Of a stretch of 64,000 bases of DNA, positions 1,505 through 39,599 are shown piece by piece (position 1 is the first letter of the stretch; the number at the start of each line of letters is the position of its first letter). The translations under genes were made by a program, and so were the position numbers. The notes beneath the pieces were generated by a model. The model worked only from the letters and a program-made list of their open reading frames with translations, did no database searches and was not told the origin of the DNA. This DNA comes from Escherichia phage Ecwhy_1: sequence record MH791411.1. The stretch is one strand, 5' to 3'.

Positions 1505-1627
1505 TTCAGTACTGAATACTTATATAATAGATACACTTCCGCACCCTATGGGTCAGTGAGTTATCTCTCAATGGATATATAATAGCAAAGGGACTGACCG
1601 GAGTCAATCCCTTTTTTTAATCTTTTT
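1505..1627. repeat. conserved ~120-bp intergenic element, copy 1
   Basis: shares AGATACACTnnnGCACCCTRTGGG box and GGGACTGACCGGAGTCAATCCC hairpin + T7 run with copies at 4785 and 8785. Confidence 0.6.
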
Positions 1628-3131: not shown

Positions 3132-3527
3132 TTAGATAACCTGGCGGCGTTTACTGTATACTGTTACACGATTACCCTTACGATCATGTCGGATCTCTTT
3201 CTGGTTGCGAATCAGTTCACTTGGACGCTTAAGGTTTGCCAGGTGATCCGCGTGAGTCCATGCGGTGTGGTTTACCTGTACTTTGATATCAGAATCAGCG
3301 ATAAACTCATCTTGTGCGTCAAGTATTGCCGCCAGCATATCCGCTCGTTTTAGTTCTGCTGCTGTCAGTACTGGCTCAGGTGAATTCACAATATCAGAGA
3401 TTTCTTTGAACTGTACGGCCCAGCGTTGACCTTTCGTTGCATCTTTGCCCATGTCTTTAAATGCTGCTCCTTCCTCGCGTGCAACAATACGGGCAGCTTC
3501 ACGGGTAGCGTAGAATTTAGTAATCAT
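3132..3527 (-). CDS. hypothetical protein; paralog of 16542-16808
   Basis: shared KYFATREQARIAAR..GATFKDMG..DRKGNRVTVY; start set at MITKF after AGGA. Confidence 0.6.
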   Translation of the reverse strand: MITKFYATREAARIVAREEGAAFKDMGKDATKGQRWAVQFKEISDIVNSPEPVLTAAELKRADMLAAILDAQDEFIADSDIKVQVNHTAWTHADHLANLKRPSELIRNQKEIRHDRKGNRVTVYSKRRQVI

Positions 3528-3622
3528 GGTATACATCCTATTAGTTGAGTTAGTACTACAAGTTAGAGTCTATTATAAAGTACTATCTGGGCAATGTCAA
3601 ATAGTACTTTAAATGGATTCTA

Positions 3623-3946
3623 TTACATGTCTTTCTTACGTTTTACATCGTGGTAGCGAACTGTTATTTCTTTGTTGATCTCTTCCTCGATGCGATGAAT
3701 AACTTTTTCTTTCGGGTTGAAACCTATAACGGTTTCTTTAATGATCTCCAAGCCCGTGTATTCGCCTTGTGTACCGTAACCGTATGTAAAGGTTTCGTGT
3801 CCCAGGTCTTCCCAGCGGTCGCCAATTAACGCAGACACGTAGCAAGAGTGGTAAGTATTGCCGTGTGAATCAGTCCACCGATTAACGTTAATGTCAAAGG
3901 AGGTTACAATTTTCAATTCTACTTTCTGGGCAAGGATCATAGCCAT
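3623..3946 (-). CDS. hypothetical protein; paralog of 10466-10789
   Basis: shared RWTDSxGNTYHSCxVS..TYGY..VKRKKD; ATG start. Confidence 0.65.
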   Translation of the reverse strand: MAMILAQKVELKIVTSFDINVNRWTDSHGNTYHSCYVSALIGDRWEDLGHETFTYGYGTQGEYTGLEIIKETVIGFNPKEKVIHRIEEEINKEITVRYHDVKRKKDM

Positions 3947-4784: not shown

Positions 4785-4895
4785 CTAGCCACCAGCAAAC
4801 AATAGATACATTTATGCACCCTGTGGGCTAATTTGTTTCTATGCGTATATAATAGCAAAGGGACTGACCGGAGTCAATCCCTTTTTCAAATATTT
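4785..4895. repeat. conserved ~120-bp intergenic element, copy 2
   Basis: GCACCCTGTGGGC box + GGGACTGACCGGAGTCAATCCC hairpin + T-run. Confidence 0.6.
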
Positions 4896-5302: not shown

Positions 5303-5515
5303 TTAATCTTTCAGCCAATGATCCTGAATGAATTTTTCACCGGAACCTTGCTGCATTGATTGTAACAGACGTTCGCGATGAGCGGCGGCGAATTGCTCAG
5401 TACTATGCGTTACACCTGGTTGATATCTGGATTCACCATTTGGGGCGATGTATTGTACATCCCACGGTTTTTCGTTAGTATCAGACCATTTACGAACGAT
5501 TAGTTGACCTTGCAT
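5303..5515 (-). CDS. hypothetical protein (70 aa)
   Basis: ORF track; ATG start. Confidence 0.6.
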   Translation of the reverse strand: MQGQLIVRKWSDTNEKPWDVQYIAPNGESRYQPGVTHSTEQFAAAHRERLLQSMQQGSGEKFIQDHWLKD

Positions 5516-5598
5516 TTTTCTTTCCTCTTAGTGGGGAGAATCATTTCTCCCCTTCATGTAAACTATTATACAGTACTGGATTGCATTGTCAATAGTTT
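5516..5598 (-). promoter_or_regulatory. PeSL-like cassette
   Basis: TTGACA-17-TATAAT + GGGGAGAAATGATTCTCCCC hairpin. Confidence 0.65.
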
Positions 5599-5922
5599 TT
5601 ATTCACCTTGTTTGAATATAGTTTTCTCCATTGATTCCATGATTGCAACCAATACAGCATGGATCTCACTTAACGCGGCATCACTAAAAGCATTAATGAA
5701 TAGGCAATCATTCTCGCGAATATTTTTAATGTACTTATCAGCAGTGGTTGCGAATTCATTCAACGGCAGATCAAATGCTTTATCCCATAATGGATGGCGT
5801 AACTGTAACAGTACTGGATTATCACGATCACCAGGGGAAAACGTACCAGTGATGAAACATACGCCCGGAATACTTTCGAACTGGCAACGGACTTCCTTTG
5901 TGATAGTAGTATGAATGTACAT
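5599..5922 (-). CDS. hypothetical protein (107 aa)
   Basis: ORF track; GAGGA SD. Confidence 0.6.
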   Translation of the reverse strand: MYIHTTITKEVRCQFESIPGVCFITGTFSPGDRDNPVLLQLRHPLWDKAFDLPLNEFATTADKYIKNIRENDCLFINAFSDAALSEIHAVLVAIMESMEKTIFKQGE

Positions 5923-7056: not shown

Positions 7057-7129
7057 TGATCAAGAATTGATCAGAATTATACGCCTTATGCTAAATTGAT
7101 CCAGTACTTTTTTGATCATTTATTGATCG
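7057..7129. promoter_or_regulatory. cluster of five TGATC(A) / GATC sites
   Basis: five GATC within ~73 bp in an intergenic region. Confidence 0.5.
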
Positions 7130-7223
7130 ATATTATATAGTTACATTTGTGCACCCTATGGGTTAGTGACGTTCTCGTCTTGATGTAAGTATTATGCCAG
7201 TACTGGAGGATATTGTCAATAGA

Positions 7224-8784: not shown

Positions 8785-8905
8785 TTCAGTACTCAATACT
8801 CATATAATAGATACACTTATGCACCCTGTGGGCTAGTGAGCTATCTCTCAATGAATATATAATAGCAAAATGGCTGACCGGAGTCAACCACTTTTTTCAT
8901 TTATT
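8785..8905. repeat. conserved ~120-bp intergenic element, copy 3
   Basis: GCACCCTGTGGGC box + TGGCTGACCGGAGTCAACCA hairpin + T6. Confidence 0.6.
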
Positions 8906-11720: not shown

Positions 11721-11869
11721 ATTACTTTTTGCAAAATACTTTAAACGCTCTCAATCGCGTTCTTACAGCCTTAACGCCACCAGCTAGGGCAATGCATCAG
11801 ATAATCAGTTTAATGCGTTAGAATCGTTTCTAGGCGGTGCTGGTGGCATGGTAAACGATAAACACAAAA

Positions 11870-12396: not shown

Positions 12397-12599
12397 TTTA
12401 TAAATCCTCAATTAAAGTTTAGTTTACGTTTATTAGTGTATCAAAGTTTTCTCGACGTGTCCAGTTTTTCGTTCGACTTACTGGCGGTCTACTTAGTGCT
12501 CCCCGTCTTGATGTAATACATTCTACGCTTTTCTGCGGTAATGTCAACTACTTTCTTAAAACTATTTTCAAAGTATCTCAGTACTACGATACTACAAAA

Positions 12600-13265: not shown

Positions 13266-13502
13266 TTATGATTTTTTATAAAACATTTCAGCAGTGATAT
13301 TTTTACCCGTTGGCTGTACTTTATCCAGAATTTTTTGATGCCCTGGTCGTCCAAAGGAATATGATCCGTAAACAGTAAACCAGTAGTTACCCTCAGTGTT
13401 TACATGTACAGCACAATAAGGAACACCACGCGATTCATCACTAGTAAAGTGTGATACCGTTCCCGTTACATTCGCAGACGTTGATTTGATTTGTTCGACC
13501 AT
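13266..13502 (-). CDS. hypothetical protein (78 aa)
   Basis: ORF track. Confidence 0.6.
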   Translation of the reverse strand: MVEQIKSTSANVTGTVSHFTSDESRGVPYCAVHVNTEGNYWFTVYGSYSFGRPGHQKILDKVQPTGKNITAEMFYKKS

Positions 13503-13580
13503 TTTCTTATTCCTTAGTTACCAGGGGAACCGCTCCCCCTATGCAAAACATTATACGCGTTTAAAAACTAATTGCAAGTA
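13503..13580 (-). promoter_or_regulatory. PeSL-like cassette
   Basis: promoter + GGGGGAGCGGTTCCCC hairpin. Confidence 0.6.
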
Positions 13581-13610
13581 TTTTAATAAAAAGTATTTGA
13601 AAAATAGTTG

Positions 13611-13680
13611 TTGACAAGTGCATCCAGTACTGGCATAATTACTACATCAAGACGAAACAGTCACTAACCCACCGGGTGCC
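13611..13680 (+). promoter_or_regulatory. plus-strand sigma70-type promoter + conserved box
   Basis: TTGACA-N17-CATAAT on plus strand, ACCCACCGGGTGC box ~30 nt downstream. Confidence 0.5.
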
Positions 13681-13745
13681 GAGATCCGTCTATTAAATGA
13701 TTCAGTACTGAAAAAGTAACGGGGAGTTATTATCTCCCCGTGTTG

Positions 13746-13967
13746 TTATTTTGTAAGGTATAAACAGAAGTCGCCTTTATTTGCTACGCCGCCAGTGTAA
13801 CGCGAGGAATAGTTAGAAACGTCCTGGACTTCTGCTATTACCAGGGTATCATCATTCAATTCGTCGCAGAAGCAAACGGCTGGATCTTGTACGCCGATTT
13901 TGTCGGCATGTTCCCGCATAGATTTAACCAGTGCTTCCAGTTGGGAAAGAGTAGTGATATTAGCCAT
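13746..13967 (-). CDS. hypothetical protein (73 aa)
   Basis: trimmed to MANITTL. Confidence 0.55.
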   Translation of the reverse strand: MANITTLSQLEALVKSMREHADKIGVQDPAVCFCDELNDDTLVIAEVQDVSNYSSRYTGGVANKGDFCLYLTK

Positions 13968-14051
13968 TTTATTTTCCTCATTACCAGGGAGAACCATTTC
14001 TCCCTTTGATGTAAACCATTATACAGTACTGAAAACTAATTGCAAGTACTT
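13968..14051 (-). promoter_or_regulatory. PeSL-like cassette
   Basis: promoter + GGGAGAAATGGTTCTCCC hairpin. Confidence 0.6.
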
Positions 14052-14240
14052 TTAATTAAATTCCATAAAATCATTTTCAACGTGCACAACAATCTGATTA
14101 TTTTTAAAGGACGCAGAAAACTCTATACAATCATAAACCGCTTTTTCTGTTACCAGACTATGAGCACCAATCGGATTAATTGGGGATTGAATTGTTTCAA
14201 TCTCGTTACCTTGTTCATTAACGATTAAAATATTAAACAT
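14052..14240 (-). CDS. hypothetical protein (62 aa)
   Basis: ORF track. Confidence 0.5.
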   Translation of the reverse strand: MFNILIVNEQGNEIETIQSPINPIGAHSLVTEKAVYDCIEFSASFKNNQIVVHVENDFMEFN

Positions 14241-14279
14241 TGCCGTTACTCCTGGATAGTGTTAACTCGATATAAAGTA

Positions 14280-14462
14280 TTATACGCCTTTATTGCTTAG
14301 TGTCCAGTGATCACGCATCATACGCCCCGCACGATCCCAGCTAGTAGGCATGGGTATGCCTTGCAATTCGTTAGGGGAGATCTCGACCTCGATCCCTACA
14401 TCAATAACAGTCATTCCAGCTTTCGCAGCTTGCTCGCGGATAACCTCAGATAATGTTGTCAT
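14280..14462 (-). CDS. hypothetical protein (60 aa)
   Basis: ORF track; leader duplicated from the 14052 gene. Confidence 0.5.
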   Translation of the reverse strand: MTTLSEVIREQAAKAGMTVIDVGIEVEISPNELQGIPMPTSWDRAGRMMRDHWTLSNKGV

Positions 14463-14536
14463 GATTAAAGCTCCTGGATAGTGTTAACTCGATATAAAGT
14501 ATTATACAGTACTGAAAACTAATTGCAAGTACTTTT

Positions 14537-14797
14537 TTAATATTGTTTGTCGTCGTCTTCCTCGATGAATTGACCGACGAAATGATCTACTTTCGCTTTG
14601 AGGCTTTTATAATCTTCTTCTACTTCCGTTAAACGTTCCTGGTAGTATTCCAATGCTTCAAGATACGCCGCCTCAGCAGTTTTTGCACGCATAGCTAAAT
14701 TCATTCCACGCGTTTCATCAAATAGCCAATAACCATCGGTGCACTGGCTAATAGATAATGACTTGCTTAGTACTGTATAGCTAATTACTTTACTCAT
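14537..14797 (-). CDS. hypothetical protein (86 aa)
   Basis: ORF track; GAGGG SD after GGCGGGTAATAGTTCCCGCC hairpin. Confidence 0.6.
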   Translation of the reverse strand: MSKVISYTVLSKSLSISQCTDGYWLFDETRGMNLAMRAKTAEAAYLEALEYYQERLTEVEEDYKSLKAKVDHFVGQFIEEDDDKQY

Positions 14798-14854
14798 TAG
14801 ATAACCCTCAGTAAAGGCGGGAACTATTACCCGCCATTATCTCAGTACTGAATA

Positions 14855-15094
14855 TTACATTCCAACCATTGCAGCACGGATCGCAGTAGTGCTATACTTA
14901 AAGCCGTCCGGCGTTGTAGTAGTACCGTTGGCTTTTAATCTGCGGTACATACATTCCGCAGCAATATCTTTAGTTCTACTTTGTGCGATGCAACTTTGAG
15001 CAAGCCGATACAATGACTCACCGTTATTAATCCAAAGGCTTACATTCCAATGAGTTTTGTTTTTGTGTCCGTTGTAAGTTTTAGTACTAGCCAT
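14855..15094 (-). CDS. hypothetical protein; paralog of 16895-17134
   Basis: shared HKNKTHWNVSLWINN..PDGFKYSTTAIRAAMVGM; trimmed to MASTK. Confidence 0.6.
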   Translation of the reverse strand: MASTKTYNGHKNKTHWNVSLWINNGESLYRLAQSCIAQSRTKDIAAECMYRRLKANGTTTTPDGFKYSTTAIRAAMVGM

Positions 15095-15184
15095 TTTTAA
15101 ATCCTCGTTTGAGCGGGGAACCACTCCCCGCCTCGATATAAAGTATTATACGCTTTTAAACTTAGTTTGCAAGTACTTTTTAAA
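15095..15184 (-). promoter_or_regulatory. PeSL-like cassette
   Basis: promoter + CGGGGAGTGGTTCCCCG hairpin. Confidence 0.6.
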
Positions 15185-15796
15185 TTAATATTCGATTGAT
15201 TCCACTACGCCATCAATAACATTGAATTGATACTCGTTACCCTCAATCAGTGCCGTAATGTTTTCAGTAGTGAATTGATCCTCATATGCATTCTCTAAAT
15301 CACGGTACAACTTGCGGGACAATTCACGAATAGTTTCAGTGAGTAGTTCCTCAAGCTCATTAACTAACGTTTCTTGTTTTGCGGTTAAATCAGTGTAAGC
15401 CGATTCAATGTACCCGCTTACAGTATTCTCATGCGAGTAGTGGGAGTGCGAACGTTTTACACTCATCGCCAAATCATCTTCATTCAGCAAGTGACGGATT
15501 GAGCGATACTTAGTTAATGCTCTTACCTTGCGTAAAAACTTCACTGCGTCAACGTGGTCAGTACTGATTGATGCACCGTCACCCTGGGACCAAAAACCAC
15601 TGAATTGTATTTCAGCGTCATTAATGCCATATTCCGGTAGTACTGTTTCTTTATAGTATTCAATTTCACTTTCAGAAAAATAATTGTCGTTTGAGTTTTT
15701 TTCACGTTCCCGAACCAGTTCGATAGCTGACGTTTGTTGTTCTGCGTTCAATTCAGAAAAAGCCATAACATAAGTAGTAGTAGTGATAGTTTTCAT
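15185..15796 (-). CDS. hypothetical protein (203 aa)
   Basis: ORF track; ATG after GAGGGT SD. Confidence 0.65.
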   Translation of the reverse strand: MKTITTTTYVMAFSELNAEQQTSAIELVREREKNSNDNYFSESEIEYYKETVLPEYGINDAEIQFSGFWSQGDGASISTDHVDAVKFLRKVRALTKYRSIRHLLNEDDLAMSVKRSHSHYSHENTVSGYIESAYTDLTAKQETLVNELEELLTETIRELSRKLYRDLENAYEDQFTTENITALIEGNEYQFNVIDGVVESIEY

Positions 15797-15825
15797 TTTG
15801 TAACCCTCATTCAGTAGTTGATGTA

Positions 15826-15960
15826 AGTATTATACGCTTTTAAAAACATTTGTCAAACTATTTTATCAGGGGAGTTTTTCGTGTGCCTTACTCCTGGGCT
15901 ACTTAACGGGAAGTTACTTATTTCGTTCCCCGTCCTGATGTAAAACATTATACGCCTTTA
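15826..15960 (-). repeat. duplicated structured leader, copy B
   Basis: near-identical to 4601-4740. Confidence 0.6.
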
Positions 15961-16020
15961 AACATAGTTTGCAAGTACTTTTTAAAAATAGTTTTCAGTA
16001 CTGAATAGTAAAAAAAAGTA

Positions 16021-16081
16021 TTGACAGCATTATCAAGTACTGGTATAATATACCCCATGACAACAGCTAACCCACCGGGTG
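16021..16081 (+). promoter_or_regulatory. plus-strand consensus sigma70 promoter + conserved box
   Basis: TTGACA-N17-TATAAT (perfect consensus), ACCCACCGGGTGC box downstream. Confidence 0.6.
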
Positions 16082-16223
16082 CACAATTGTAACTATACTA
16101 AACTAATTTTTCTATAGATACACTCCCGCACCCTATGGGCTACGGCTTATCTGCCAATGAATACATTATGCCAGTACTGACAAAATAAGTCAATACCGGC
16201 AATTGTAAAGATTTGTAAACTGC

Positions 16224-16460
16224 TTATACTGCAATCGCGTCCAGGCTATAATAATAATAAGTGCCGTATTGGTGTACTTTATTACCTTTTATTTCAGTAC
16301 TGAATGAATCCGAACGGTTTGCATATGATGTTAATTTAAAGTACTTTGATTTGCTGATACGTTGCCATACACCACAGATCCGCTGTAAGTAAGTAGTTTT
16401 ATTCGTGGTAGTATCTTTTACGGTTTTAACTTCAGTCATATACATATTAGTCATTTTCAT
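16224..16460 (-). CDS. hypothetical protein (78 aa)
   Basis: ORF track; GGAG SD. Confidence 0.55.
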   Translation of the reverse strand: MKMTNMYMTEVKTVKDTTTNKTTYLQRICGVWQRISKSKYFKLTSYANRSDSFSTEIKGNKVHQYGTYYYYSLDAIAV

Positions 16461-16541
16461 TACTCCAGGTTATAGGCGGGAAGAGTTCCCGCTCTCGATG
16501 TAAAACATTATACGCCATTAAACATAGTTTGCAAGTACTTT
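16461..16541 (-). promoter_or_regulatory. PeSL-like cassette
   Basis: promoter + GCGGGAACTCTTCCCGC hairpin. Confidence 0.6.
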
Positions 16542-16808
16542 TTATTCAAGTACTGCAATCTTTTTAGTACGGTACACGGTCACGCGGTTGCCCTTTCGGT
16601 CGAGCTTTATTTCTACCACTCGACGCGATACACTATCGGGACTTTTTAAGGCCGCTAACCAGTACTGTAATGATCTGGCGGTACTACGCTTTACAATGGC
16701 CCAACGTTTACCACGTTCCGATTGTACGCCCATATCTTTAAACGTTGCCCCGTCCTGGCGTGCGGCGATCCGAGCTTGTTCACGCGTCGCAAAATACTTA
16801 ATTTTCAT
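16542..16808 (-). CDS. hypothetical protein; paralog of 3132-3527
   Basis: trimmed to MKIKYFATREQ. Confidence 0.6.
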   Translation of the reverse strand: MKIKYFATREQARIAARQDGATFKDMGVQSERGKRWAIVKRSTARSLQYWLAALKSPDSVSRRVVEIKLDRKGNRVTVYRTKKIAVLE

Positions 16809-16894
16809 GCTGTTGCCCTTATCGTTGGTGTATGAATAAAACACTATTATAAAGTACTATCGCAAAAAAATGATAGTACTTTAAATAAATTCTA

Positions 16895-17134
16895 TTACAT
16901 TCCAACCATCGCCGCACGGATCGCAGTAGTGCTATATTTGAATCCGTCCGGTGTTTTATCTTGTCCAGTCTGTTCTAAAAATAACATCATATGACGGGCC
17001 GCATCATTGCGATTAGTGCTATCGTTAATAAAGTCCTGGGCCAACCGATACAATCCCTCATCGTTATTAATCCAAAGGCTTACATTCCAATGAGTTTTGT
17101 TTTTGTGACCTAAGAACATTTTTGATTTAGCCAT
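16895..17134 (-). CDS. hypothetical protein; paralog of 14855-15094
   Basis: trimmed to MAKSKMF. Confidence 0.6.
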   Translation of the reverse strand: MAKSKMFLGHKNKTHWNVSLWINNDEGLYRLAQDFINDSTNRNDAARHMMLFLEQTGQDKTPDGFKYSTTAIRAAMVGM

Positions 17135-17227
17135 TTTTTTAATCCTCTTATATAGTGGGGAACTATTCCCCACCTGATGTAAAACATTATACGCCATTAA
17201 ACATAGTTTGCAAGTACTTTATTAAAC
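17135..17227 (-). promoter_or_regulatory. PeSL-like cassette
   Basis: promoter + GGGGAATAGTTCCCC hairpin. Confidence 0.6.
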
Positions 17228-17590
17228 TTATTTGTAAATTTTGCCACTGTCAGCCCATACCAGGAAACGAGGCATATTATCCCATGCATCTTGTTTTAAG
17301 TTTAAGCCGTGCAATTCCTCAGTTGTTGCCATCCCTGGTACTGGCTTACTACACACCGCGAAATTTTCGCCCATATACTGATAAACCATCGTCAAATCAT
17401 TTGAGATCATTATATGGATCATTGAATCCAGCATCAAAGTAGCGGCGTATTGTTCACGCTTAAGCGGCAACATTGCAATAAGTTCCCGATAAGCTGCAAT
17501 GTGAATTTTTACAGTTTCAGCCGGAAGACCTTTCATCTCATCGCGGAAGTTTACCAGGTTAAGCATGATTTTATTGATTTGAGTCGCCAT
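17228..17590 (-). CDS. hypothetical protein (120 aa)
   Basis: trimmed to MATQINK. Confidence 0.6.
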   Translation of the reverse strand: MATQINKIMLNLVNFRDEMKGLPAETVKIHIAAYRELIAMLPLKREQYAATLMLDSMIHIMISNDLTMVYQYMGENFAVCSKPVPGMATTEELHGLNLKQDAWDNMPRFLVWADSGKIYK

Positions 17591-17650
17591 CGTTTTAATC
17601 TCTCTTAATGTGTAGCGGGAAGTGTTCCCGCTCTCGATGTAAAACATTAT
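17591..17650 (-). promoter_or_regulatory. PeSL-like cassette
   Basis: promoter + GCGGGAACACTTCCCGC hairpin. Confidence 0.6.
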
Positions 17651-17702
17651 ACGCTTTTATCAGTACGGTGCAAGTACTTTCTACAAATACTTTTAAAATA
17701 GT

Positions 17703-17795
17703 TTTCTTTCTATATAGGAGTACTATTATTCAGTACTGCAATCATCCAGGGGAACTATCTTTCTATATAGGAGTACTATTATTCAGTACTGAATC
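17703..17795. repeat. two tandem copies of a ~33-bp direct repeat
   Basis: CTTTCTATATAGGAGTACTATTATTCAGTACTG repeated with ~53-bp period. Confidence 0.7.
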
Positions 17796-17953
17796 AATCC
17801 ACTAAATCATCCCTATACCCCGTAAAACGTCCTCAGACGCATTCTAACGCATTAATACACATAAGCTATACATTTGCACCATTCCAATCATTCCAGGGCT
17901 TTACAGGCCGTTTAAACGCGTTAAATTATTTTCAATTATTTTGTTTTTAGGTA

Positions 17954-18025
17954 TTGACTTGATCCTGAAAAAGCGTATAATTACTACATAGACGCGAGAA
18001 AGCGGATACCCCAGGGGGTGGGAAG
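17954..18025 (+). promoter_or_regulatory. plus-strand sigma70-type promoter
   Basis: TTGACT-N16/17-TATAAT. Confidence 0.5.
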
Positions 18026-18169
18026 ATCCGTCCAAAATTCAAGATATAAAAAAAGGATACACTCCCGCACCCTAGCAGGTAAACGCACTTTCTCAGTACT
18101 GAAATATAGTACCATAGTCCGGCCCAGGATAGCAAGCAAATTAATTAAAACTTTTTTGCTTCCAGGGTA

Positions 18170-18237
18170 TTGCTTTATTTTTCCAGTACTGTATAATAGT
18201 TCCATCAAGTCGAGAAAGACTCAAGCCCACCGGGTGC
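18170..18237 (+). promoter_or_regulatory. plus-strand sigma70-type promoter + conserved box
   Basis: TTGCTT-N16-TATAAT, GCCCACCGGGTGC box downstream. Confidence 0.5.
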
Positions 18238-18294
18238 ATAGTTACGCCCAAAATTCAGTACTGAAAAAATTTTTAAAAATATCCGGCCAGGCCG

Positions 18295-18323
18295 TTGACA
18301 TTGCCCCCAGTTTATAAGATAAT
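18295..18323 (+). promoter_or_regulatory. plus-strand sigma70-type promoter
   Basis: TTGACA-N17-GATAAT. Confidence 0.45.
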
Positions 18324-18420
18324 GATTCCAGATTCAGAAAAATCTAACACCAGATACTGCGGGGAAACTATCCCCACGCGGTAGGGGAACTATTGGAAAA
18401 AACAAAATAAAATTTTGATT

Positions 18421-18612
18421 TAGCCGTCTATACTTCCAGACGTGTAACCATCTAGCCGTTTAGCCGTCCAAACGTCTAGCCATCCAGCCATCCAGAAATC
18501 TAGCCGTTTAGCCGTCTAGATGGATAGCCATCTTTACTTCCAGACTTCTGGAGGGCTAGACATATCTACGCCCAAAATCCATCCAGGGTAACTACGCCCA
18601 AAATCCGTCAGT
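18421..18612. repeat. iteron-like array of interleaved short direct repeats
   Basis: TAGCCGT x5, CCATCCAG x3, CTACGCCCAAAATCC x2, ACTTCCAGAC x2; locally GC-richer. Confidence 0.65.
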
Positions 18613-19629
18613 ACTATACCATAGATCTATCTTTTGAAAGGGAGTATTCAGTACTGCCATCATAGCCCTCACTATGTTACCCTAGGAGGATGAAGACCAT
18701 CATGTAGTACTGAATACTGTTAGAGGGAATCCACCAGCTTGTGCTGGTGGCATAATGCTTTAGATTAAAATCAGTACTGACACCATTCTGTTAATATCAG
18801 TACTGTTATTACGATTTTCATATGAGGTTCAAAAAGATGTACCACCACAGGAGGAACTATCTTTTCTGTACTGTCTCACGACAGGAGGTAGAGTAAATGA
18901 ATTGTTCGCAGCAACTCATCACCCTATGTAGAACATTATACAGTACTGAATCATAAAGTCAATAACTTTCTTTCATCTTTCAGTACTGATATTCTTGAGA
19001 ACTACCCGACTACAAACATCATTATATCCCACAAATCATAAACGTCCCAACGTAAATTTCAACTTTCGAAGATCCAACTTTTATTTCATAGGTACTCCAA
19101 AATTTTTAGGATCGAGATTTAGGATGGAGTACTAACCAACTTTTTGCTGGAGCCTCAAGGGGTAATGGAATTTTACCCCGAAGGGTAAAGGGGTAATTGA
19201 AATTAAGGTGAAAGTAATAATTCAGTACTAATCATTGCGTGATTACTTTTGATTACATTTGATGTAATTTGCAAAATGGAAAAGGAGCTTGGAAACTACA
19301 AAGTACGGCAGACTTCCTCTGCCTACTTAGTGGGATATCGCCACCTTCAGTACTGAATACTTTTAGGGCAGTACTGAATCCTTCCCTAGCATTCTTGAGT
19401 AATCTTGTCTATAATAATCAGTACTGAATCATATATAATCATTCTGTGATTCTACGGTGCTCATATAAATGTTTATATATGATTACTTATGACTACATAT
19501 GATTACGGGGTTTAGCCTGGGGAGAATCCTAGTGATCGCATTTGTCCAGGCTGAATTTTAACAATTCTTCTAATTGTTAAAGCCTGTCCAATGCTTTCCC
19601 TGCGGAGCTTCCCCTGTCTATATGTTGAA

Positions 19630-19836
19630 TTACTTCCTATATATAAGCATTAACATATAGTAGTACTGATTATGCTGTACATTCTCTTTAATATTATAAG
19701 GGTCTATAGCAATCTCGGTACATCTGTTAAATGCATATCTATTAAATGCCAGTACTATTATAGATCTAATCCATGCTTGGTCAGTCGGTGGTAGTTTACT
19801 TATATAGTACTCTTTATAGTTTTTTATGTTCTGCAT
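19630..19836 (-). CDS. small paralog family member (68 aa)
   Basis: family: N-term M-N-x-K-E-(F/Y)-Y, C-term hydrophobic ..LIYR-like. Confidence 0.6.
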   Translation of the reverse strand: MQNIKNYKEYYISKLPPTDQAWIRSIIVLAFNRYAFNRCTEIAIDPYNIKENVQHNQYYYMLMLIYRK

Positions 19837-19847
19837 AGTATACCTTA

Positions 19848-20039
19848 TTATTTCAAAGTACCATATAGTACTCTTAATAGGAAGTAGTACGTATTAGAGA
19901 TATCATTAGTAGTTAAAACAATCTTTGTACACATATTAAATTCGTATTGAGTCATTGCCAGGGGGATTAAATTGTTAACCCATGCTTGTTCGTTTTCTTT
20001 TAGTTTACTTATATAGAAATCTTTATGTTCTTTATTCAT
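19848..20039 (-). CDS. small paralog family member (63 aa)
   Basis: MNKEHKDFY..; tightly packed with neighbours. Confidence 0.6.
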   Translation of the reverse strand: MNKEHKDFYISKLKENEQAWVNNLIPLAMTQYEFNMCTKIVLTTNDISNTYYFLLRVLYGTLK

Positions 20040-20241
20040 ATAGGAATAGTATACCTATGATGCCGGAGTACATATTAGTACTGTTATTATTGTCGTTTGC
20101 GTTTAAAGTCATTTGAATACAATTATTGTAGCATACTCTGCCGAAATAAGTATCAGTACTTAAAGGTGCTGTAGTCCTTAGAAACATTTGTTCTGTGGGG
20201 CTGAGGTGTTTGGAGTAGAATTCTTTATGTTCTTTATTCAT
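20032..20241 (-). CDS. small paralog family member (69 aa)
   Basis: MNKEHKEFY.. Confidence 0.6.
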   Translation of the reverse strand: MNKEHKEFYSKHLSPTEQMFLRTTAPLSTDTYFGRVCYNNCIQMTLNANDNNNSTNMYSGIIGILFLYE

Positions 20242-20246
20242 ATTAG

Positions 20247-20432
20247 TTAGTGTCTGTATATAAGTAATAGTAAGAATACGTACTGCACCTGTTCATCTTT
20301 AGTATTGAGTACTGTACGTATTGCGTCATGGAACAAGAATATAGTACTTGGGTCATTAGAATTTAAGGGGTTTACGGGGACGGCGTGTTTGTAGTTCCCT
20401 TTAACAAATTGTGTGTAGTATTCTCTATGCAT
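20247..20432 (-). CDS. small paralog family member (61 aa)
   Basis: MHREYYTQF.. Confidence 0.6.
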   Translation of the reverse strand: MHREYYTQFVKGNYKHAVPVNPLNSNDPSTIFLFHDAIRTVLNTKDEQVQYVFLLLLIYRH

Positions 20433-20433
20433 A

Positions 20434-20622
20434 TCAGTACCTATATATTAGGGCGAGAATGTAGTACAGTTTATATGTATTATAATCTGGGTTGATAGCA
20501 CATAGTGTGTGGTAGTGGAATTGTTTGGTATTTTTCTTATCCTTGATATCTATTGGGTTTAGTGGTATAAGCATTTGGGAGTTTAGTTCCAGATGGTTTA
20601 AGTAGAATTCTTTGTTATTCAT
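20434..20622 (-). CDS. small paralog family member (62 aa)
   Basis: MNNKEFYLNHL.. Confidence 0.6.
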   Translation of the reverse strand: MNNKEFYLNHLELNSQMLIPLNPIDIKDKKNTKQFHYHTLCAINPDYNTYKLYYILALIYRY

Positions 20623-20821
20623 AGAAGAATATTAGTCCCATTACGCCTGAGTACTGAATATTTTTGTTATTGTTTTCTAAAGCTTCTAGAGTAATACGTA
20701 TACAATTATTAAAGCAATCTCTGGCGTGTGGTGTATCTAAACTTAAAGGTGATACACTCCTTAGAAACATTTGTTCTGATGCACTGAGGTGTTTGGTGTA
20801 AAATTCTTTCTGTTCGTTCAT
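20615..20821 (-). CDS. small paralog family member (68 aa)
   Basis: MNEQKEFYTKHL.. close paralog of 20032 gene. Confidence 0.6.
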   Translation of the reverse strand: MNEQKEFYTKHLSASEQMFLRSVSPLSLDTPHARDCFNNCIRITLEALENNNKNIQYSGVMGLIFFYE

Positions 20822-20831
20822 ATTGGCCTCT

Positions 20832-24343: not shown

Positions 24344-25492
24344 ATGTTACCTTTTGTTAGAATGTTTGATTATGGGAATGAAGCACCTACCAACTCTGGG
24401 CGTTTTAAAATATATTCCAGTGATTCTATGTATCTTCATGATACTTATACTGACAAGTTGTATGCATCTTCTGCGACGAATTGGGGTACTGGTACAGGTG
24501 TAGCATCGAGTAAATTTATTCTTTGTGCGGAGAATGTTAAACGAGTTCTATTGGAAGATAACAGTAGTGATTGTCAATTGTATGAAGAGAAAGGTACTGG
24601 AAAAGTTTTTATCACTGGTAACACGAAGGCATTCACTGGTGTAACTGATAGAAAAACTTTGTGGACGGACTGTACTACGTGGATAACATCAAGTGGTATT
24701 AATGTTTCTGATATAAAATACATGAGTAGTTTTTATGATATGAAGGTGAATTTGATAACAAACGATGGTACATTGTATTGTTGTGGAGCTAACAATATAT
24801 CGAACATATCATCATTTGGTGATGGCACAAACATTAATTCTTTTAACACATTCAAAAGAGTAGATACTATAACTTCGGTTAAAAAGGCAGTTGGTAACAT
24901 TTATTTGCGAGAAGATAATACTTTATGGGGTTGTGGTTTTAACTATTACTACCAGTTGGGCACGGGTAATCAAACTTCTATTACTGGGGTGACGATGATT
25001 TCTTCGGATGTTATAGATTTTAATGTAAGTTATCAGAGTACATTTTTTATCAAATCGGATAATAATTTGTACGCTTGTGGTAAACAGTTCGGTGCACAAT
25101 ATGGGAACGAATTTGGTACAGGTGGTACTTCTACATCTACAGATATACAATATAAAACTCCCACATTATTGAGTGCAGGTGTTTATAGTTTATATACTTG
25201 TGTTGGTAACATGGCATCACATATAGTTAAAGGTGATGAAGTACTTTATGCATCTGGAAGCAACTCGTCTGGTCAATTAGGTGTTGGTAATAATAATAAT
25301 CAGTACTCCTATACTCCTTCATATACTTCGTTTAATACCTCTTGTAATTTGGTACGCACCCCATCTGGTTCACTTATACTTACTGATACTGGAAAATTAT
25401 ATTATTGTGGCCTTGCAATAGTAGTAATGGGTGGTATTTCTGGACAGAACGTTCTTAATTATACAGAAGTCGATATGTCATTTTTGCAGTAA
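24344..25492 (+). CDS. RCC1-like beta-propeller repeat protein, array member 1
   Basis: N-term MLPFVRMFDYGN; YYYQLGTGN and GQLGVGNN blade motifs. Confidence 0.85.
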   Translation: MLPFVRMFDYGNEAPTNSGRFKIYSSDSMYLHDTYTDKLYASSATNWGTGTGVASSKFILCAENVKRVLLEDNSSDCQLYEEKGTGKVFITGNTKAFTGVTDRKTLWTDCTTWITSSGINVSDIKYMSSFYDMKVNLITNDGTLYCCGANNISNISSFGDGTNINSFNTFKRVDTITSVKKAVGNIYLREDNTLWGCGFNYYYQLGTGNQTSITGVTMISSDVIDFNVSYQSTFFIKSDNNLYACGKQFGAQYGNEFGTGGTSTSTDIQYKTPTLLSAGVYSLYTCVGNMASHIVKGDEVLYASGSNSSGQLGVGNNNNQYSYTPSYTSFNTSCNLVRTPSGSLILTDTGKLYYCGLAIVVMGGISGQNVLNYTEVDMSFLQ

Positions 25493-25559
25493 ATTAATAT
25501 GCCAGTACTTGATACTGGCTTTTTTGATTAAATATAGTATAATGAATAAAGGAGGAAAT
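25493..25559 (+). promoter_or_regulatory. array intergenic cassette: terminator hairpin + TATAAT + AGGAGG
   Basis: GCCAGTAC-TTGA-TACTGGC + T-run, TTGATTAAATATAGTATAAT, AAAGGAGG. Confidence 0.65.
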
Positions 25560-36577: not shown

Positions 36578-37714
36578 ATGTTACCTTTTGCAAGAATGGT
36601 TAAGTACGGGAATATAAAAGTAAAGAGTACTATACAAAAAGTTATACTTGGTGGTGGTGGTCAATGTGTGGTAACATTACTCAGTGATGGTAGAGTGTAT
36701 GGACGTGGTTACAACACTACACATGGGTTAGGTACTGGTACAACAACATTCGTAAGTGATTGGGTATTAATGGGAGATAATATTGTTGATATCCATTCAA
36801 ATGGTGTTACTGGAACATTCCTTATTACCAAAGAAAATAGAATATTGTATTCTGGTTTTGCGACACCAATCAATGGCACAACATCACATTATACACGTTT
36901 CACTGATTTAACATCAACTGTATTTGCTGCGGTGGATGTTAGTAATATTAAAACAATTACGGGAAATGGTAATGTTACAATGGTTCTTTTGAATGATGGT
37001 TCACTTTATGGGAGTGGTGCAAATATAGGGGTTATAGGTAATGGTAGTAACGTTGCATTATCAACACAAACATATGTGACTAATGATGTGCGTGATGTGA
37101 AAACATATCCATCAATGAACACTATAACAAAAAATAATAATCAAATATTGGCTAGTGGTATTTTATACCAAGGCGTGAACGGTACAAATTCATCAATAAA
37201 CACGTCTTCATATACATTACTGTACACATTACCGAGTTCTGATTGTTTTCAATTTGCATTTGATACATATACATTTGGATATGTTGACCCTAGTACTAAC
37301 ACTTCTTATATAAGAGGTATACCAATAAATGGTTCATTAGGTAATGGCGTTACTAATAATACAGCAGTTACAACATGGGTTACTAAAGTTTGGAATACAC
37401 CAATTGATAGTTCTATACCTAATAAATCATATACAACTAACCATGTCTCCTTGTTCAATGATGGAAACTTATGGACAACTGGTGCATCTAGTGTAGGTTA
37501 TTCCAATGGTACAAATAGCACAACAGCTAATACATGGACCAGTTCATCTAATTTACCATTCAACACTAATAACATAACAGACTATGCTTTTGGTGGTAGT
37601 ATTACTGTAGTGGTAATCGACTACAGGACTATGTACATACTAGCTAACAACGCCATTGCTGGTACTGCTACGACAACTTATAAATTTGAGCCATATAATT
37701 CTCCACCAGTTTAA
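36578..37714 (+). CDS. RCC1-like repeat protein, array member 11
   Basis: MLPFARMVKYGN. Confidence 0.8.
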   Translation: MLPFARMVKYGNIKVKSTIQKVILGGGGQCVVTLLSDGRVYGRGYNTTHGLGTGTTTFVSDWVLMGDNIVDIHSNGVTGTFLITKENRILYSGFATPINGTTSHYTRFTDLTSTVFAAVDVSNIKTITGNGNVTMVLLNDGSLYGSGANIGVIGNGSNVALSTQTYVTNDVRDVKTYPSMNTITKNNNQILASGILYQGVNGTNSSINTSSYTLLYTLPSSDCFQFAFDTYTFGYVDPSTNTSYIRGIPINGSLGNGVTNNTAVTTWVTKVWNTPIDSSIPNKSYTTNHVSLFNDGNLWTTGASSVGYSNGTNSTTANTWTSSSNLPFNTNNITDYAFGGSITVVVIDYRTMYILANNAIAGTATTTYKFEPYNSPPV

Positions 37715-37746
37715 TATAATGCCAGTACTATGTACTGGCTTTTCTT
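37715..37746. terminator. terminator hairpin between convergent genes
   Basis: GCCAGTACTATGTACTGGC + T-run. Confidence 0.6.
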
Positions 37747-38397
37747 TTACATATTATATAATGTGAATGCAGTCACTTTACCAGTTGTTGTTAGTTCATT
37801 ATAAAGATACTCCAAGATTCTCGCACACTCTAAGTATATCTCGATATCATCATGAATAAGTGAGTACTGAAATAGCTGTTCTTCAGGTAATTTGTATTGA
37901 CTTCCTTTTAATGAATTGAGAATATCTTTCACATCATCAAGTACTGGGTAAAGTACGAAATCTTCATCATATTTTGAAGCAATAAATTCAAATCCACCAC
38001 CATCAGTACTAGATATACCAATCAGTACTTTATCAATCAAGTTAATGTTTATATAACGGTTGTGATTTGGGTGAATTGAAATCTCAAACATAAGAGTACT
38101 GTTACAATCAACATCAATATACAAATATACATCATTGAATTTATAAGTTAAGCAACCGTACTCAAGAAAATCAGAGCAAATAATTGATGAGTTTTTTCTC
38201 GTCTCTGCGTAATGCATCTTGATATTCTTTTCACGCATAAGTAATTCGAACTTTGCACTAAACTTGCCACCAGCAAGATAGTTAGTATTAGGACGTTTGT
38301 AACTTGCAACTGGTCGGTGGGATGATGTAAAGTATTTTTTTGTGAATCGTTTATGTTTAGTGAAATATTCTTGATAGAACTTACTTCTTTTATTCAT
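37747..38397 (-). CDS. hypothetical protein (216 aa), opposite strand inside array
   Basis: ORF track; GAGGT SD; divergent from array member 12. Confidence 0.6.
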   Translation of the reverse strand: MNKRSKFYQEYFTKHKRFTKKYFTSSHRPVASYKRPNTNYLAGGKFSAKFELLMREKNIKMHYAETRKNSSIICSDFLEYGCLTYKFNDVYLYIDVDCNSTLMFEISIHPNHNRYININLIDKVLIGISSTDGGGFEFIASKYDEDFVLYPVLDDVKDILNSLKGSQYKLPEEQLFQYSLIHDDIEIYLECARILEYLYNELTTTGKVTAFTLYNM

Positions 38398-38474
38398 GAG
38401 TACCTCAATTAAATCGCTGTAAAATTGTACATTATAAAATGATTAAATAAAGTATAACACAAGGAGATTTTATC

Positions 38475-39599
38475 ATGTTACCTTTCGTATTGTTATTTGA
38501 TTATGGGAACGAAAAACAAGAAAGTTCTTATGATGTTAGTGTATATGGAAACAATAACTACATTTTAAATAAACAAACTGGAAACCTTTTTGCATCCGGT
38601 GCTGCGGCATTCATGGGTGATAACACAGTTAAGTATTATATTACCCAAATAGAATCAAATGTTCATAGCTGTGAGATAGGTTTCCTATCATCATGGATAA
38701 TTAAGAAGGACAAAACTGTTTTCATTTTAGGAAACAAAAGCAGTATAGGATTAACTGGTTCGACAACATCATGGTTCGAAATTACAAATTTATTTTCTGC
38801 TGTTCCTGAAATATGGGACAACCTATTTGAATGTAAAGTTCAATTGGGATATAACTGTATACGTGTTATGACACCACTAGGATCAATCTATGCGATTGGT
38901 ACAAACACTTATGGTGCATTGGGTACTGGTACTACATCCTCATCAACTTCGTTCGTTAAAAGTGGTGCTGTGGATGCTGTACGCATGGAATCAACAGAAC
39001 GTTCAGTGTTCTATCAAAACAGTTCTGGACAATGGTTTGGATGTGGTGATAACACATATGGTATACTAGGTCTAGGAACTACCGCGAGTCGTGTAAACTC
39101 ATACACCGCACCAGTATGGACTAATGCAGAAGCTGTTAGCTTCTCTAACCGTGGGATCATATACAGCCTCAATGGTACTCTATACTCATGTGGTGACAAA
39201 GTTAATGGTCAGCTAGGGGATGGATATACACAAAGCATAGACGCTGCCAGGAGCACACCATACACCATAGGAACCGCATTCCAAATTGGTAAGGCAATAA
39301 CATCAGCTACACAAGCATCAGCCAACGTATTCATTGGTAAAGATAATAAGTTCTATGGTACTGGTAGTATTGCTGCTGGTATAAATGGTAGTGCTAGTGC
39401 TGCATTAAGTAAAGTTACTGCGTTATCAGCATCACTACCACCTGACATTACATACAATGATATTATAACATTTAATACAGGGACCGTAACTTTTATTCAA
39501 GCAAAAGGACAACTATATTATGTTGGTAGAAGAACTTACATAGATAATAGTTCAGACGTTACCACACAGTTCAGTGTAATTGGTGGCTTAGATAATTAA
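38475..39599 (+). CDS. RCC1-like repeat protein, array member 12
   Basis: MLPFVLLFDYGN; NTYGALGTGTT, NTYGILGLGTT, VNGQLGDGY. Confidence 0.85.
   Translation: MLPFVLLFDYGNEKQESSYDVSVYGNNNYILNKQTGNLFASGAAAFMGDNTVKYYITQIESNVHSCEIGFLSSWIIKKDKTVFILGNKSSIGLTGSTTSWFEITNLFSAVPEIWDNLFECKVQLGYNCIRVMTPLGSIYAIGTNTYGALGTGTTSSSTSFVKSGAVDAVRMESTERSVFYQNSSGQWFGCGDNTYGILGLGTTASRVNSYTAPVWTNAEAVSFSNRGIIYSLNGTLYSCGDKVNGQLGDGYTQSIDAARSTPYTIGTAFQIGKAITSATQASANVFIGKDNKFYGTGSIAAGINGSASAALSKVTALSASLPPDITYNDIITFNTGTVTFIQAKGQLYYVGRRTYIDNSSDVTTQFSVIGGLDN

Follow-up and report, generated by a model that had tools for sequence, protein, structure and literature searches.

Why would a phage place strong promoters opposite to its own genes? 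The question is raised by a 64,000-nt stretch of Escherichia phage Ecwhy_1 (MH791411.1; "the window" below, numbered from its first nucleotide), where an initial annotation had reported sigma-70 consensus promoters on the plus strand at 13611, 16021, 17954, 18170 and 18295, surrounded by minus-strand genes and accompanied by a conserved GCACCC..GGGT box. This promoter and box observation is real and highly non-random. Comparative sequence analysis solidly supports a family of promoter units without an open reading frame (ORF), which is specific to one clade and concentrated in the terminal repeat of its genomes. The same comparison gives solid support for purifying selection on the transcribed 5′ domain of the units as RNA.

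A promoter scan gave a perfect TTGACA-17-TATAAT at 16021-16049 (12/12) and sites of 11/12 each at 13611-13639, 17954-17981 and 18295-18323. The 18170 promoter (TTGCTT-16-TATAAT) has a weak -35 element and stayed under the scan threshold, but it is followed by a unit of the family. Plus-strand sites of at least 11/12 numbered five in 1-21000, compared to 0.55 expected from 200 dinucleotide shuffles (maximum 3). The box was also enriched over shuffled sequence: ACCCACCGGGTGC with at most two mismatches was found seven times against 0.37 expected, and none of 100 shuffles reached seven. These matches are located at 13667, 16070 and 18225 on the plus strand and at 1541, 4816, 7151 and 8821 on the minus strand, while the relaxed pattern CCC-N2-4-GGGTG adds 18009 (plus) and 16139 (minus).

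Three of the plus-strand promoters had been reported to carry the box. In fact it is present behind four of the five, as a variant (ACCCCAGGGGGTGG) behind 17954, and is missing only behind 18295. The box had also been described in the other orientation, and this recurrence was confirmed, but not as a separate inverted element: the reverse boxes at 1541, 4816, 7151, 8821 and 16128 follow minus-strand sigma-70-like promoters at 1607, 4877, 7219, 8887 and 16193, respectively. All nine unit boxes are found 21-28 nt downstream of the -10 on their own strand. Since every box follows a same-strand promoter at a similar distance, the repeated object is a promoter-plus-leader unit that can be placed in either orientation. 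The promoters of the units match the sigma-70 consensus at 10-12 of 12 positions and have A/T-rich upstream sequence.

We aligned 63 units, taken from the window and from its relatives RaK2, GAP32, CBB, Munch and Hallingskeid, performed a hairpin search, and built a covariance model (R1) from 18 in-register units. In the RNA sense, the -10 is followed by 7 nt, a C-1/A+1 start, 2-3 nt, a hairpin (P1), a YUAR linker and the box, RCCC-AYA-GGGUGC. Past the box come 6 nt (GGAGRU or AUAARU), a GYRYCY tract and AU-rich sequence. The predicted A+1 starts are at 13646, 16057, 17988 and 18204 on the plus strand and at about 1573, 7184, 8853 and 16158 on the minus strand. P1 starts at +4 and has a variable stem of 3-5 bp and a purine- or A-rich loop of 6-8 nt, such as AGAUAA, GAGAAA, GCGAAA or AGAACAA; the box is positioned at about +22 to +35, with a fixed spacing of 3-5 nt between P1 and box. 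A minority of the units kept an A-rich stretch without the P1 stem. The conserved structured 5′ domain measures ~55-60 nt.

Compensatory changes were found at all four pairs of P1, which occurs as more than 15 different stems, and its pairing is kept in 94% of the cells compared to 18-57% with slid partners. When all column pairs of 99 distinct sequences were scanned for mutual information, the top four were exactly the P1 pairs (87-100% paired), and no other long-range pair emerged. For instance, the RaK2 counterpart of the 13611 unit (BLAST, 71% identity) has AGC/GCU instead of GAC/GUC, and these arms are still complementary. P1 subtypes are conserved across host genera. Such strong compensatory covariation shows that the transcript is under selection, and not the DNA alone. 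The box itself is 95-100% invariant at CCC, the loop A (A61) and GGGUGC. It can fold on itself through CCC/GGG (P2), and the loop insertions CCC-UCAA-GGG and CCC-UAGA-GGG leave both arms intact; because the arms are invariant, P2 cannot be tested by covariation. Alternatively, GGGUG can pair with YRYYY of the GYRYCY tract (P3), a pairing seen in 90.5% of the cells versus 34-64% when slid. The five tract positions opposite GGGUG are 92-100% Y, Y, Y, R and Y and change by transitions only, which preserve G-C/G-U or U-A/U-G pairs. P2 and P3 share the GGG and are thus mutually exclusive. G-U pairs in P1, P2 and P3 occur only on the promoter-sense strand, which indicates that the structure is specific to that strand.

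These data also bear on the possibility that the box is a site in DNA, either an operator that is bound by a phage or host protein just behind early promoters or a conserved sequence at which mobile promoter cassettes, similar to promoter-early stem-loops (PeSLs), recombine. The invariant 12 bp with their CCC-N3-GGG inverted repeat would suit such a site, as would the CAGTACTG palindromes that flank many units, the PeSL-like composite terminator/promoter cassettes of the gene-sense promoters, and a post-box segment of the 17954 unit that differs between the window and the relative G17 as if it had been swapped between units. However, P1 covariation and tolerance of G-U on the promoter-sense strand only are properties of RNA, the asymmetric box has a single orientation relative to the promoter, and loop insertions that preserve the arms would upset a half-site of fixed spacing. 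We consider a DNA-level role very unlikely. From the alignment, the box belongs to a larger conserved domain of the RNA and is not a free-standing DNA motif; within this domain it may still be a binding or processing site, as had been proposed.

With R1, 10 units of the window were detected at E<1e-4, and a further, degenerate copy at E=0.77. All matches are located in 1-18.3 kb and none in 18.4-64 kb; the good copies include five on the minus strand and the four on the plus strand that the initial annotation had seen. About 90 further copies were found in RaK2, GAP32, CBB, Munch, Hallingskeid and uncultured relatives, at 10-14 copies per genome, and R1 collected 102 units, 99 of them distinct, over 16 sources. 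The hosts of the unit-bearing jumbo phages are E. coli, Klebsiella, Cronobacter, Pectobacterium, Salmonella and Erwinia. In CBB, the exact matches to the 16-nt core are all in the two copies of the 22.4-kb terminal repeat, with none in the 333 kb between them (by locus offsets), and in IMG/VR R1 matched only loci from contigs of 345-378 kb. Presence in other viruses was rejected, as the 16-nt pattern occurs in small IMG/VR contigs by chance and R1 does not match there. The same applies to a host origin: a search of 185,579 bacterial and archaeal genomes with a strict 24-nt pattern gave two matches in metagenome-assembled genomes, about the number expected by chance, and both are without P1.

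When 13500-18500 was compared by megablast, 198 phage records matched, of which the best were Escherichia jumbo phages of the genus Asteriusvirus with genomes of 350-385 kb (top matches WPEC3, phAPEC6, G17, PBECO4 and 121Q). By this similarity, the window is from an Asteriusvirus-like, RaK2-like jumbo coliphage. The counterpart DNA in relatives falls within annotated direct terminal repeats (vB_Ec-M-J 1-21525, Muenster 1-20030, CBB 1-22456). Window positions 16010-16200 and 13600-13745 map to 3469-3657 and 5503-5648, respectively, on the minus strand of vB_Ec-M-J, which places the physical left genome end near 19.3-19.7 kb of the window. Position 1 to ~19.5 kb would therefore be terminal repeat, and the plus strand of the window would point to the genome end.

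The plus-strand promoters had been described as opposite to every gene of the region and as sources of antisense or non-coding transcripts. The first statement was confirmed, since the ORFs in 12.6-17.7 kb, and likewise all PHROG-supported ORFs in 12.8-17.7 kb, are on the minus strand. The non-coding part also fits: the units have no ORF, a C-1/A+1 start context is found 7 nt past the -10, the covarying hairpin comes right after the predicted start, and no conserved ORF was found downstream of the units. Classical cis-antisense action, in which plus transcripts would run across the minus-strand genes and silence these through base pairing, did not hold up. The plus units do stand opposite to all genes of 12.6-17.7 kb, and read-through of the terminator at 13719-13741 would cover ORF 13746-13997. 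Nevertheless, the 13611 RNA would end at this first terminator and touch only the last bases, with the stop codon and terminator, of that ORF, the 16021, 17954 and 18170 units are in intergenic or other non-coding DNA, and the same domain heads units that run in gene direction in about two thirds of the cases (six genomes). The plus units thus lack the overlap with the coding or initiation region of the opposite gene that characterizes a cis-encoded antisense RNA, and we regard this explanation as the least probable one.

We determined the orientation of 62 units from six genomes of known gene direction. Lone gene-sense units make up 33 of the 62 and lone antisense units 11, while 18 units, of either orientation, form nine convergent pairs; 20 of the 62, about one third, have no downstream gene. 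The lone gene-sense units are placed 77-116 nt upstream of an ordinary gene promoter, and in 24 of the 33 a terminator hairpin is nested within the promoter, across the -35 and spacer (in the window at 1614-1587, 4884-4857 and 8894-8867, minus strand). What comes after a unit is either a further promoter (+77 to +116), a terminator or a unit facing it. The nested stem-loop is absent from the plus units of the window, and in 14 of 20 antisense units the promoter spacer holds an AGTACT(G) palindrome. The lone antisense units adjoin the bidirectional terminator of a neighbouring gene, with a predicted RNA of ~95-105 nt. Examples are the window unit (13646 to ~13752), RaK2 14696 and 21759, and Munch 11983; that of Hallingskeid also ends in a strong hairpin. 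Paired units (in the window 16021(+)/16193(-) and 17954(+)/~18135(-)) have no terminator in between, and their transcripts would be mutually complementary over ~130 nt.

This arrangement could mean that only the firing of a strong promoter against the gene direction, or at its boundary, matters. Such transcriptional interference or insulation would stop read-through, block converging polymerases or form double-stranded RNA in the pairs, with the RNA domain being stabilising or incidental. Antisense units are indeed found at gene 3′ ends or opposite to a gene-sense unit (nine convergent pairs in six genomes), no terminator separates the paired units, and gene-sense promoters hold the terminator of the upstream gene nested inside, so that all units mark operon boundaries. 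It would, however, leave unexplained why the 12-nt box is invariant across six host genera and why P1 subtypes are shared between genera, and intrinsic terminators are available and used elsewhere in the region. We think interference unlikely.

A second alternative is an effect in cis of P1 and the box on the very polymerase by which they were transcribed. They might bring about a promoter-proximal pause, assisted by the hairpin, at which a factor loads, they might cause antitermination of the HK022 put or lambda nut type, or they might form an attenuator switch between P2 and P3. The domain is always at the extreme 5′ end at a fixed distance from the start, structure is kept in P1 and sequence in the box with their spacing fixed at 3-5 nt, and gene-sense units read into gene blocks that contain terminators. 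With regard to attenuation, P2 and P3 compete for the same GGG, and a U-run directly follows P3 in a few copies (window 18073-18054, and copies in GAP32 and CBB). Most P3 hairpins, on the other hand, have no U-tract behind them, the 20 of 62 units without a gene downstream would have nothing to control, and lone antisense units run into a strong terminator. In addition, the box departs from the G-10/Y-1/G+1 elemental pause consensus as judged by eye from the sequence, and no cis-regulatory family of Rfam matched. Control in cis is a possible but rather doubtful explanation.

The explanation we favour, with a probability of roughly 0.45, is a trans-acting RNA family that would serve as a protein-binding decoy or regulator. 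The plus-strand promoters would be the gene-antisense members of an ORF-less sigma-70 unit family in the early region, and host RNA polymerase would transcribe each unit right after DNA entry. The RNA would carry the conserved ~55-60 nt 5′ domain with P1, YUAR linker, invariant box and P2 or, alternatively, P3. Lone antisense units such as 13611 would give discrete RNAs of ~100 nt via the bidirectional terminator of the neighbour, gene-sense units, 70-105 nt ahead of an ordinary gene promoter, would give a structured leader, and paired units would face each other. The functional product would be the RNA domain itself: P1 would shield the 5′ end, and the box would be the surface recognised by a conserved partner acting in trans. 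This partner would most probably be an RNA-binding protein of the host or the phage, a host RNA being less probable. The many copies of the family would in this case serve as regulatory or decoy small RNAs of the immediate-early phase. Such a conserved partner is implied by the invariance of the 12-nt box across phages of six host genera. Action in trans is suggested by the third of the units that lack a downstream gene and by the layout of the lone units, with promoter, conserved 5′ region, AU-rich linker and terminator. It is known that a 5′-terminal stem-loop within a few nt of the 5′ end protects E. coli RNAs from 5′-end-dependent decay and, by analogy, P1 plausibly does the same here.

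Several results weigh against this explanation. P2 never varies and P3 changes are one-sided only, so neither is proven by covariation; single-sequence folding energies are unremarkable (z +0.27 to -1.9), and the mean predicted probabilities of P1, P2 and P3 are 0.52, 0.46 and 0.22 (thermodynamic, single sequences). No terminator could be recognised within 330 nt of the gene-sense and paired units, and most copies may thus be leaders rather than discrete small RNAs. A wobble-tolerant search for the box complement in the window found only the units and a few weak chance sites. On the host side, the search covered stable RNAs of E. coli, namely the rRNAs, three tRNAs, RNase P RNA, 6S and 4.5S together with the rrn leader and the ssrA region, and gave no complementarity above chance. 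A literature search found no transcriptome or 5′-end data for the clade, and we infer transcription itself and the RNA ends, including the 3′ ends of units other than 13611, as well as the identity of the partner and the biological effect. The case for RNA structure is a comparative one, based on the alignment of the units. One could also imagine a new kind of takeover RNA, with the invariant box and its two competing helices behind the covarying 5′ hairpin, made from 10-14 strong host-type promoters on the DNA that enters the cell first. It might be a multi-copy decoy for a conserved enterobacterial RNA-binding protein or nuclease, or a put-like RNA that reprograms the polymerase of the host, while convergent pairs close to the end of the genome would separately serve end protection or replication; this we consider speculative and on the unlikely side.

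A number of further candidates were rejected. A conserved small peptide was not found: neither the 11-codon ORF that begins with ATG at 16058, behind the 16021 promoter, nor mini-ORFs like AUG-UAU-CUA-UAG are conserved among units. Regarding mimicry of host stable RNAs, the longest exact match of a unit core to the host RNAs named above (16S, 23S and 5S included) was 11 nt compared to 10-15 nt in shuffles. A resemblance to RNase P RNA (CCAUAGGG, CAGGGUGC, AGGGUGCGG) was reached by 1.9% of shuffles before multiple-test correction and lacks significance. Long-range pairing of the 5′ region with the GYRYCY tract was only slightly better for a unit's own segments than for segments swapped between units (-4.32 versus -3.87 kcal/mol, P=0.006); being confounded by relatedness, this helix was not adopted, and a pseudoknot between the AGAUAA loop and GUAUCU has complementarity confined to one P1 subtype.

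T4-type phages contain PeSLs, repeated cassettes of ~100 bp among small genes of unknown function, each with a consensus sigma-70 early promoter with AT-rich upstream sequence, a terminator stem-loop between or over the -35 and -10, and a 3′ end formed by the Shine-Dalgarno sequence and start codon of the next gene (PMC2839356, PMC4122927). The units, too, are ~100-bp cassettes repeated among small genes without known function, and their early promoters follow the sigma-70 consensus and are preceded by AT-rich sequence; at 1614-1579, 4884-4849 and 8894-8859 (minus strand), the promoter design is exactly that of a PeSL. In contrast to PeSLs, they continue into P1, the box and P3 without a Shine-Dalgarno sequence, start codon or ORF, and the plus units carry the CAGTACTG palindrome where PeSLs have the nested stem-loop. 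The conserved RNA domain has no PeSL counterpart. Similarities were also seen to the trans-acting 'sibling' small RNAs of enterobacteria, which combine a conserved 5′ region with a Rho-independent terminator. Unit 13611 and lone antisense units in relatives share with them a sigma-70 promoter of their own, a length of ~100 nt, a conserved 5′ element, an AU-rich linker and a terminator with U tail, as well as the existence of several paralogous copies with one invariant segment. Differences are that no target complementarity was found in the window or in E. coli stable RNAs, that most units have no terminator and that there are 10-14 copies per genome. Having their own promoter together with a Rho-independent terminator, 13611-13752 and the lone antisense units of RaK2 and Munch would give discrete RNAs in the 50-300 nt range of such small RNAs; for the gene-sense and paired units, no terminator was found within 330 nt.

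Short hairpin RNA elements just downstream of early promoters, at more than one promoter, are also known from HK022 (putL/putR) and lambda (nut boxA/boxB). The units likewise have a promoter-proximal hairpin RNA at early promoters, and the P1 loops GAGAAA and GCGAAA recall the purine-rich loops of boxB type. However, no sequence relationship is known, the units are present in far more copies, and one third of them have nothing downstream to antiterminate. In the distantly related Pseudomonas jumbo phage PA5oct, the terminal repeat encodes two ORF-less non-coding RNAs, ncRNA001 and ncRNA002, of 236 and 451 nt, which each account for 2.4-5% of phage reads, are abundant from early infection and belong to the top phage transcripts (PMC7318152). 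In both cases, the loci lack an ORF and are part of a long direct terminal repeat, and the jumbo phage relies on the RNA polymerase of its host, but the PA5oct RNAs are longer and do not form a repeated family. Homology was rejected, as R1 gave no convincing match (best E=0.075). The PA5oct data show that ORF-less loci in a terminal repeat can be strongly expressed, even though they are not homologous to the units.

No Rfam 15 family was found in the whole window at gathering thresholds, C4 antisense RNA, riboswitches and ribozymes included; an E-value scan of 15990-18330 gave chance-level hits only (E of at least 0.96), and ARAGORN found no tRNA or tmRNA. Literature searches for the motif strings and for RaK2, GAP32 and CBB promoters returned no description of the element, and the CBB genome paper gives RpoD-like promoters without this element among them. 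The RNA family is absent from every database and literature source searched. We filed the element as a putative structured RNA family on PeSL-like and palindrome-type early promoters, outside any named family.

The RaK2-like jumbo phages (Asteriusvirus, Alcyoneusvirus, Mimasvirus and relatives) are of interest for phage therapy, in which they are both used and studied, yet the annotation of their ~20-kb terminal repeats consists only of hypothetical proteins in a row. With a selected structured RNA unit in some ten intergenic gaps of each genome, there would be a handle on the first minutes of infection. The questions raised are which host factor or polymerase state is addressed, why one third of the units fire toward the end of the genome and against the genes, and in what way early transcription is punctuated. 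With R1, the element can be annotated in newly sequenced genomes, and where small 'hypothetical proteins' have been called across units, they are probably spurious.

The units of the window are listed in Table 1.

Table 1. Promoter units and associated features in the window; E values are from the covariance model R1.
Feature	Position	Strand	Description
Unit A	1510..1614	minus	Gene-sense; promoter TTGACT-17-TATTAT; E=2e-17
Unit A terminator hairpin	1614-1587	minus	Nested over -35 and spacer of the unit A promoter
Unit A box	1553-1541	minus	P1 UGAG-AGAUAA-CUCA; next gene promoter ~98 nt further
Unit B	4785..4884	minus	Gene-sense; nested terminator/promoter 4884-4849; E=5.1e-7
Unit B box	4828-4816	minus	P1 stem absent
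Unit C	7120..7219	minus	Gene-sense; TTGACA-17-CATAAT, spacer holds CAGTACTG; E=2.6e-7
Unit C box	7163-7151	minus	P1 GACG-AGAA-CGUC
Unit D	8790..8894	minus	Gene-sense; nested terminator/promoter 8894-8859; E=1.4e-16
Unit D box	8833-8821	minus	P1 UGAG-AGAUAG-CUCA
Unit E	13611..13752	plus	Lone, antisense to genes; E=2.5e-5
Unit E promoter	13611-13639	plus	TTGACA-17-CATAAT; CAGTACTG in spacer; predicted start ~13646
Unit E P1	13651-13662	plus	GAC/GUC
Unit E box	13667-13679	plus	
Unit E P3 3′ arm	13686-13691	plus	CCGUCU
Unit E bidirectional terminator	13719-13741	plus	Followed by U-rich tail; predicted RNA ~105 nt
Unit F	16021..16113	plus	Antisense half of convergent pair; perfect TTGACA-17-TATAAT; E=3.1e-5
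Unit F box	16070-16082	plus	A-rich single-stranded stretch in place of P1 stem
Unit G	16097..16193	minus	Gene-sense partner of F; TTGACT-17-CATAAT 16193-16165; E=1.5e-10
Unit G box	16140-16128	minus	P1 UGGC-AGAUAA-GCCG
Unit H	17954..18052	plus	Antisense to genes; TTGACT-16-TATAAT; E=7.8e-5
Unit H variant box	18008-18021	plus	ACCCCAGGGGGUGG; P1 CGC-GAGAAA-GCG
Unit I	18036..18135	minus	Degenerate partner of H; weak promoter TTGCTA-18-TACTAT; E=0.77, weak
Unit I P3-like hairpin	18073-18054	minus	Then U7, terminator-like; CCC of box lost
Unit J	18170..18268	plus	Antisense to genes; TTGCTT-16-TATAAT, CAGTACTG in spacer; E=2.5e-11
Unit J box	18225-18237	plus	P1 AGUC-GAGAAA-GACU
Promoter-like site	18295-18323	plus	TTGACA-17-GATAAT, 11/12; no P1, box or R1 match; outside the family

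Munch, Hallingskeid and RaK2 also have variant boxes of the type found in unit H. Past its box, this 17954-type unit reads GGGTGGGAAGATCCGTCC in the window (18009) and GGGTGCGGAATTACGCCC in the close relative G17 (7290), a difference that resembles an exchange with the 18170-type unit and gives a hint of gene conversion between units. A transcript from the promoter-like site at 18295-18323 would begin with a GCGGGGAAACUAUCCCCACGC hairpin, and the site faces the genome end and an array of 8-bp repeats (TAGCCGTN/CATCCAGC) at 18441-18530.

The palindromes of the promoter spacers are frequent in the whole window, with 279 copies of AGTACT versus ~22 expected and 66 of CAGTACTG versus ~1 expected (for example at 13625, 13703, 16172, 18184 and 18256). 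AGTACT supplies the TG of an extended -10 in promoter spacers and is also present directly after the TTGCAA -35-like element of per-gene promoters and ~20 nt past units. It may be the site of a phage transcription regulator. Nearly every small gene has its own cassette TTGCAAGTACTTTTTAA..TATAAT (TTGCAA-16-TATAAT), on the minus strand at 13550-13577, 14018-14045, 14501-14528, 15145-15172, 15947-15974, 16507-16534 and 17186-17213, with a hairpin of the GGGGAA..UUCCCC type in the 5′ untranslated region right before the ribosome-binding site. With these hairpins, all early transcripts seem to start with a 5′ hairpin. At 12411-12547 (minus strand), a promoter TTGACA-16-TAGAAT is followed by an untranslated leader of ~130 nt that begins with ACAUCAAGACGGGGAGC; it has the ACAUCAAGAC start in common with several box units, but not the box.

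The genes next to the units gave only families of unknown function when compared with Pfam and PHROGs, and nine of the ten tested ORFs of 12.6-17.7 kb belong to PHROG families of this kind. Beyond them, 17650-20830 forms ~3 kb without a convincing ORF, and the G17 annotation has none in the corresponding stretch. Besides the 8-bp repeat array, it contains three ACGCCCAAAATYC repeats at 18239, 18563 and 18589, a 44-nt direct repeat at 17705/17758 and 204-nt repeats at 20032 and 20615. This stretch spans the mapped genome end at ~19.3-19.7 kb and is a candidate region for packaging, replication or injection control.

The Chi sequence (GCTGGTGG) is enriched and strand-biased in the terminal-repeat part, with eight minus-strand copies in 19 kb (537, 2441, 4789, 6038, 6988, 7498, 11777 and 18731) versus ~0.3 expected; plus-strand copies are at 11839, 18743 and 25776. 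The inverted pair 18731/18743 is roughly 0.6-1 kb from the presumed genome end, and the orientation of the copies would fit an attenuation of RecBCD entering from either terminus. Finally, 24344-39599 on the plus strand contains a dozen tandem ORFs of 358-414 aa each, and the ORFs that relatives have in the corresponding position carry the annotation of RCC1-like 'regulator of chromosome condensation' proteins.

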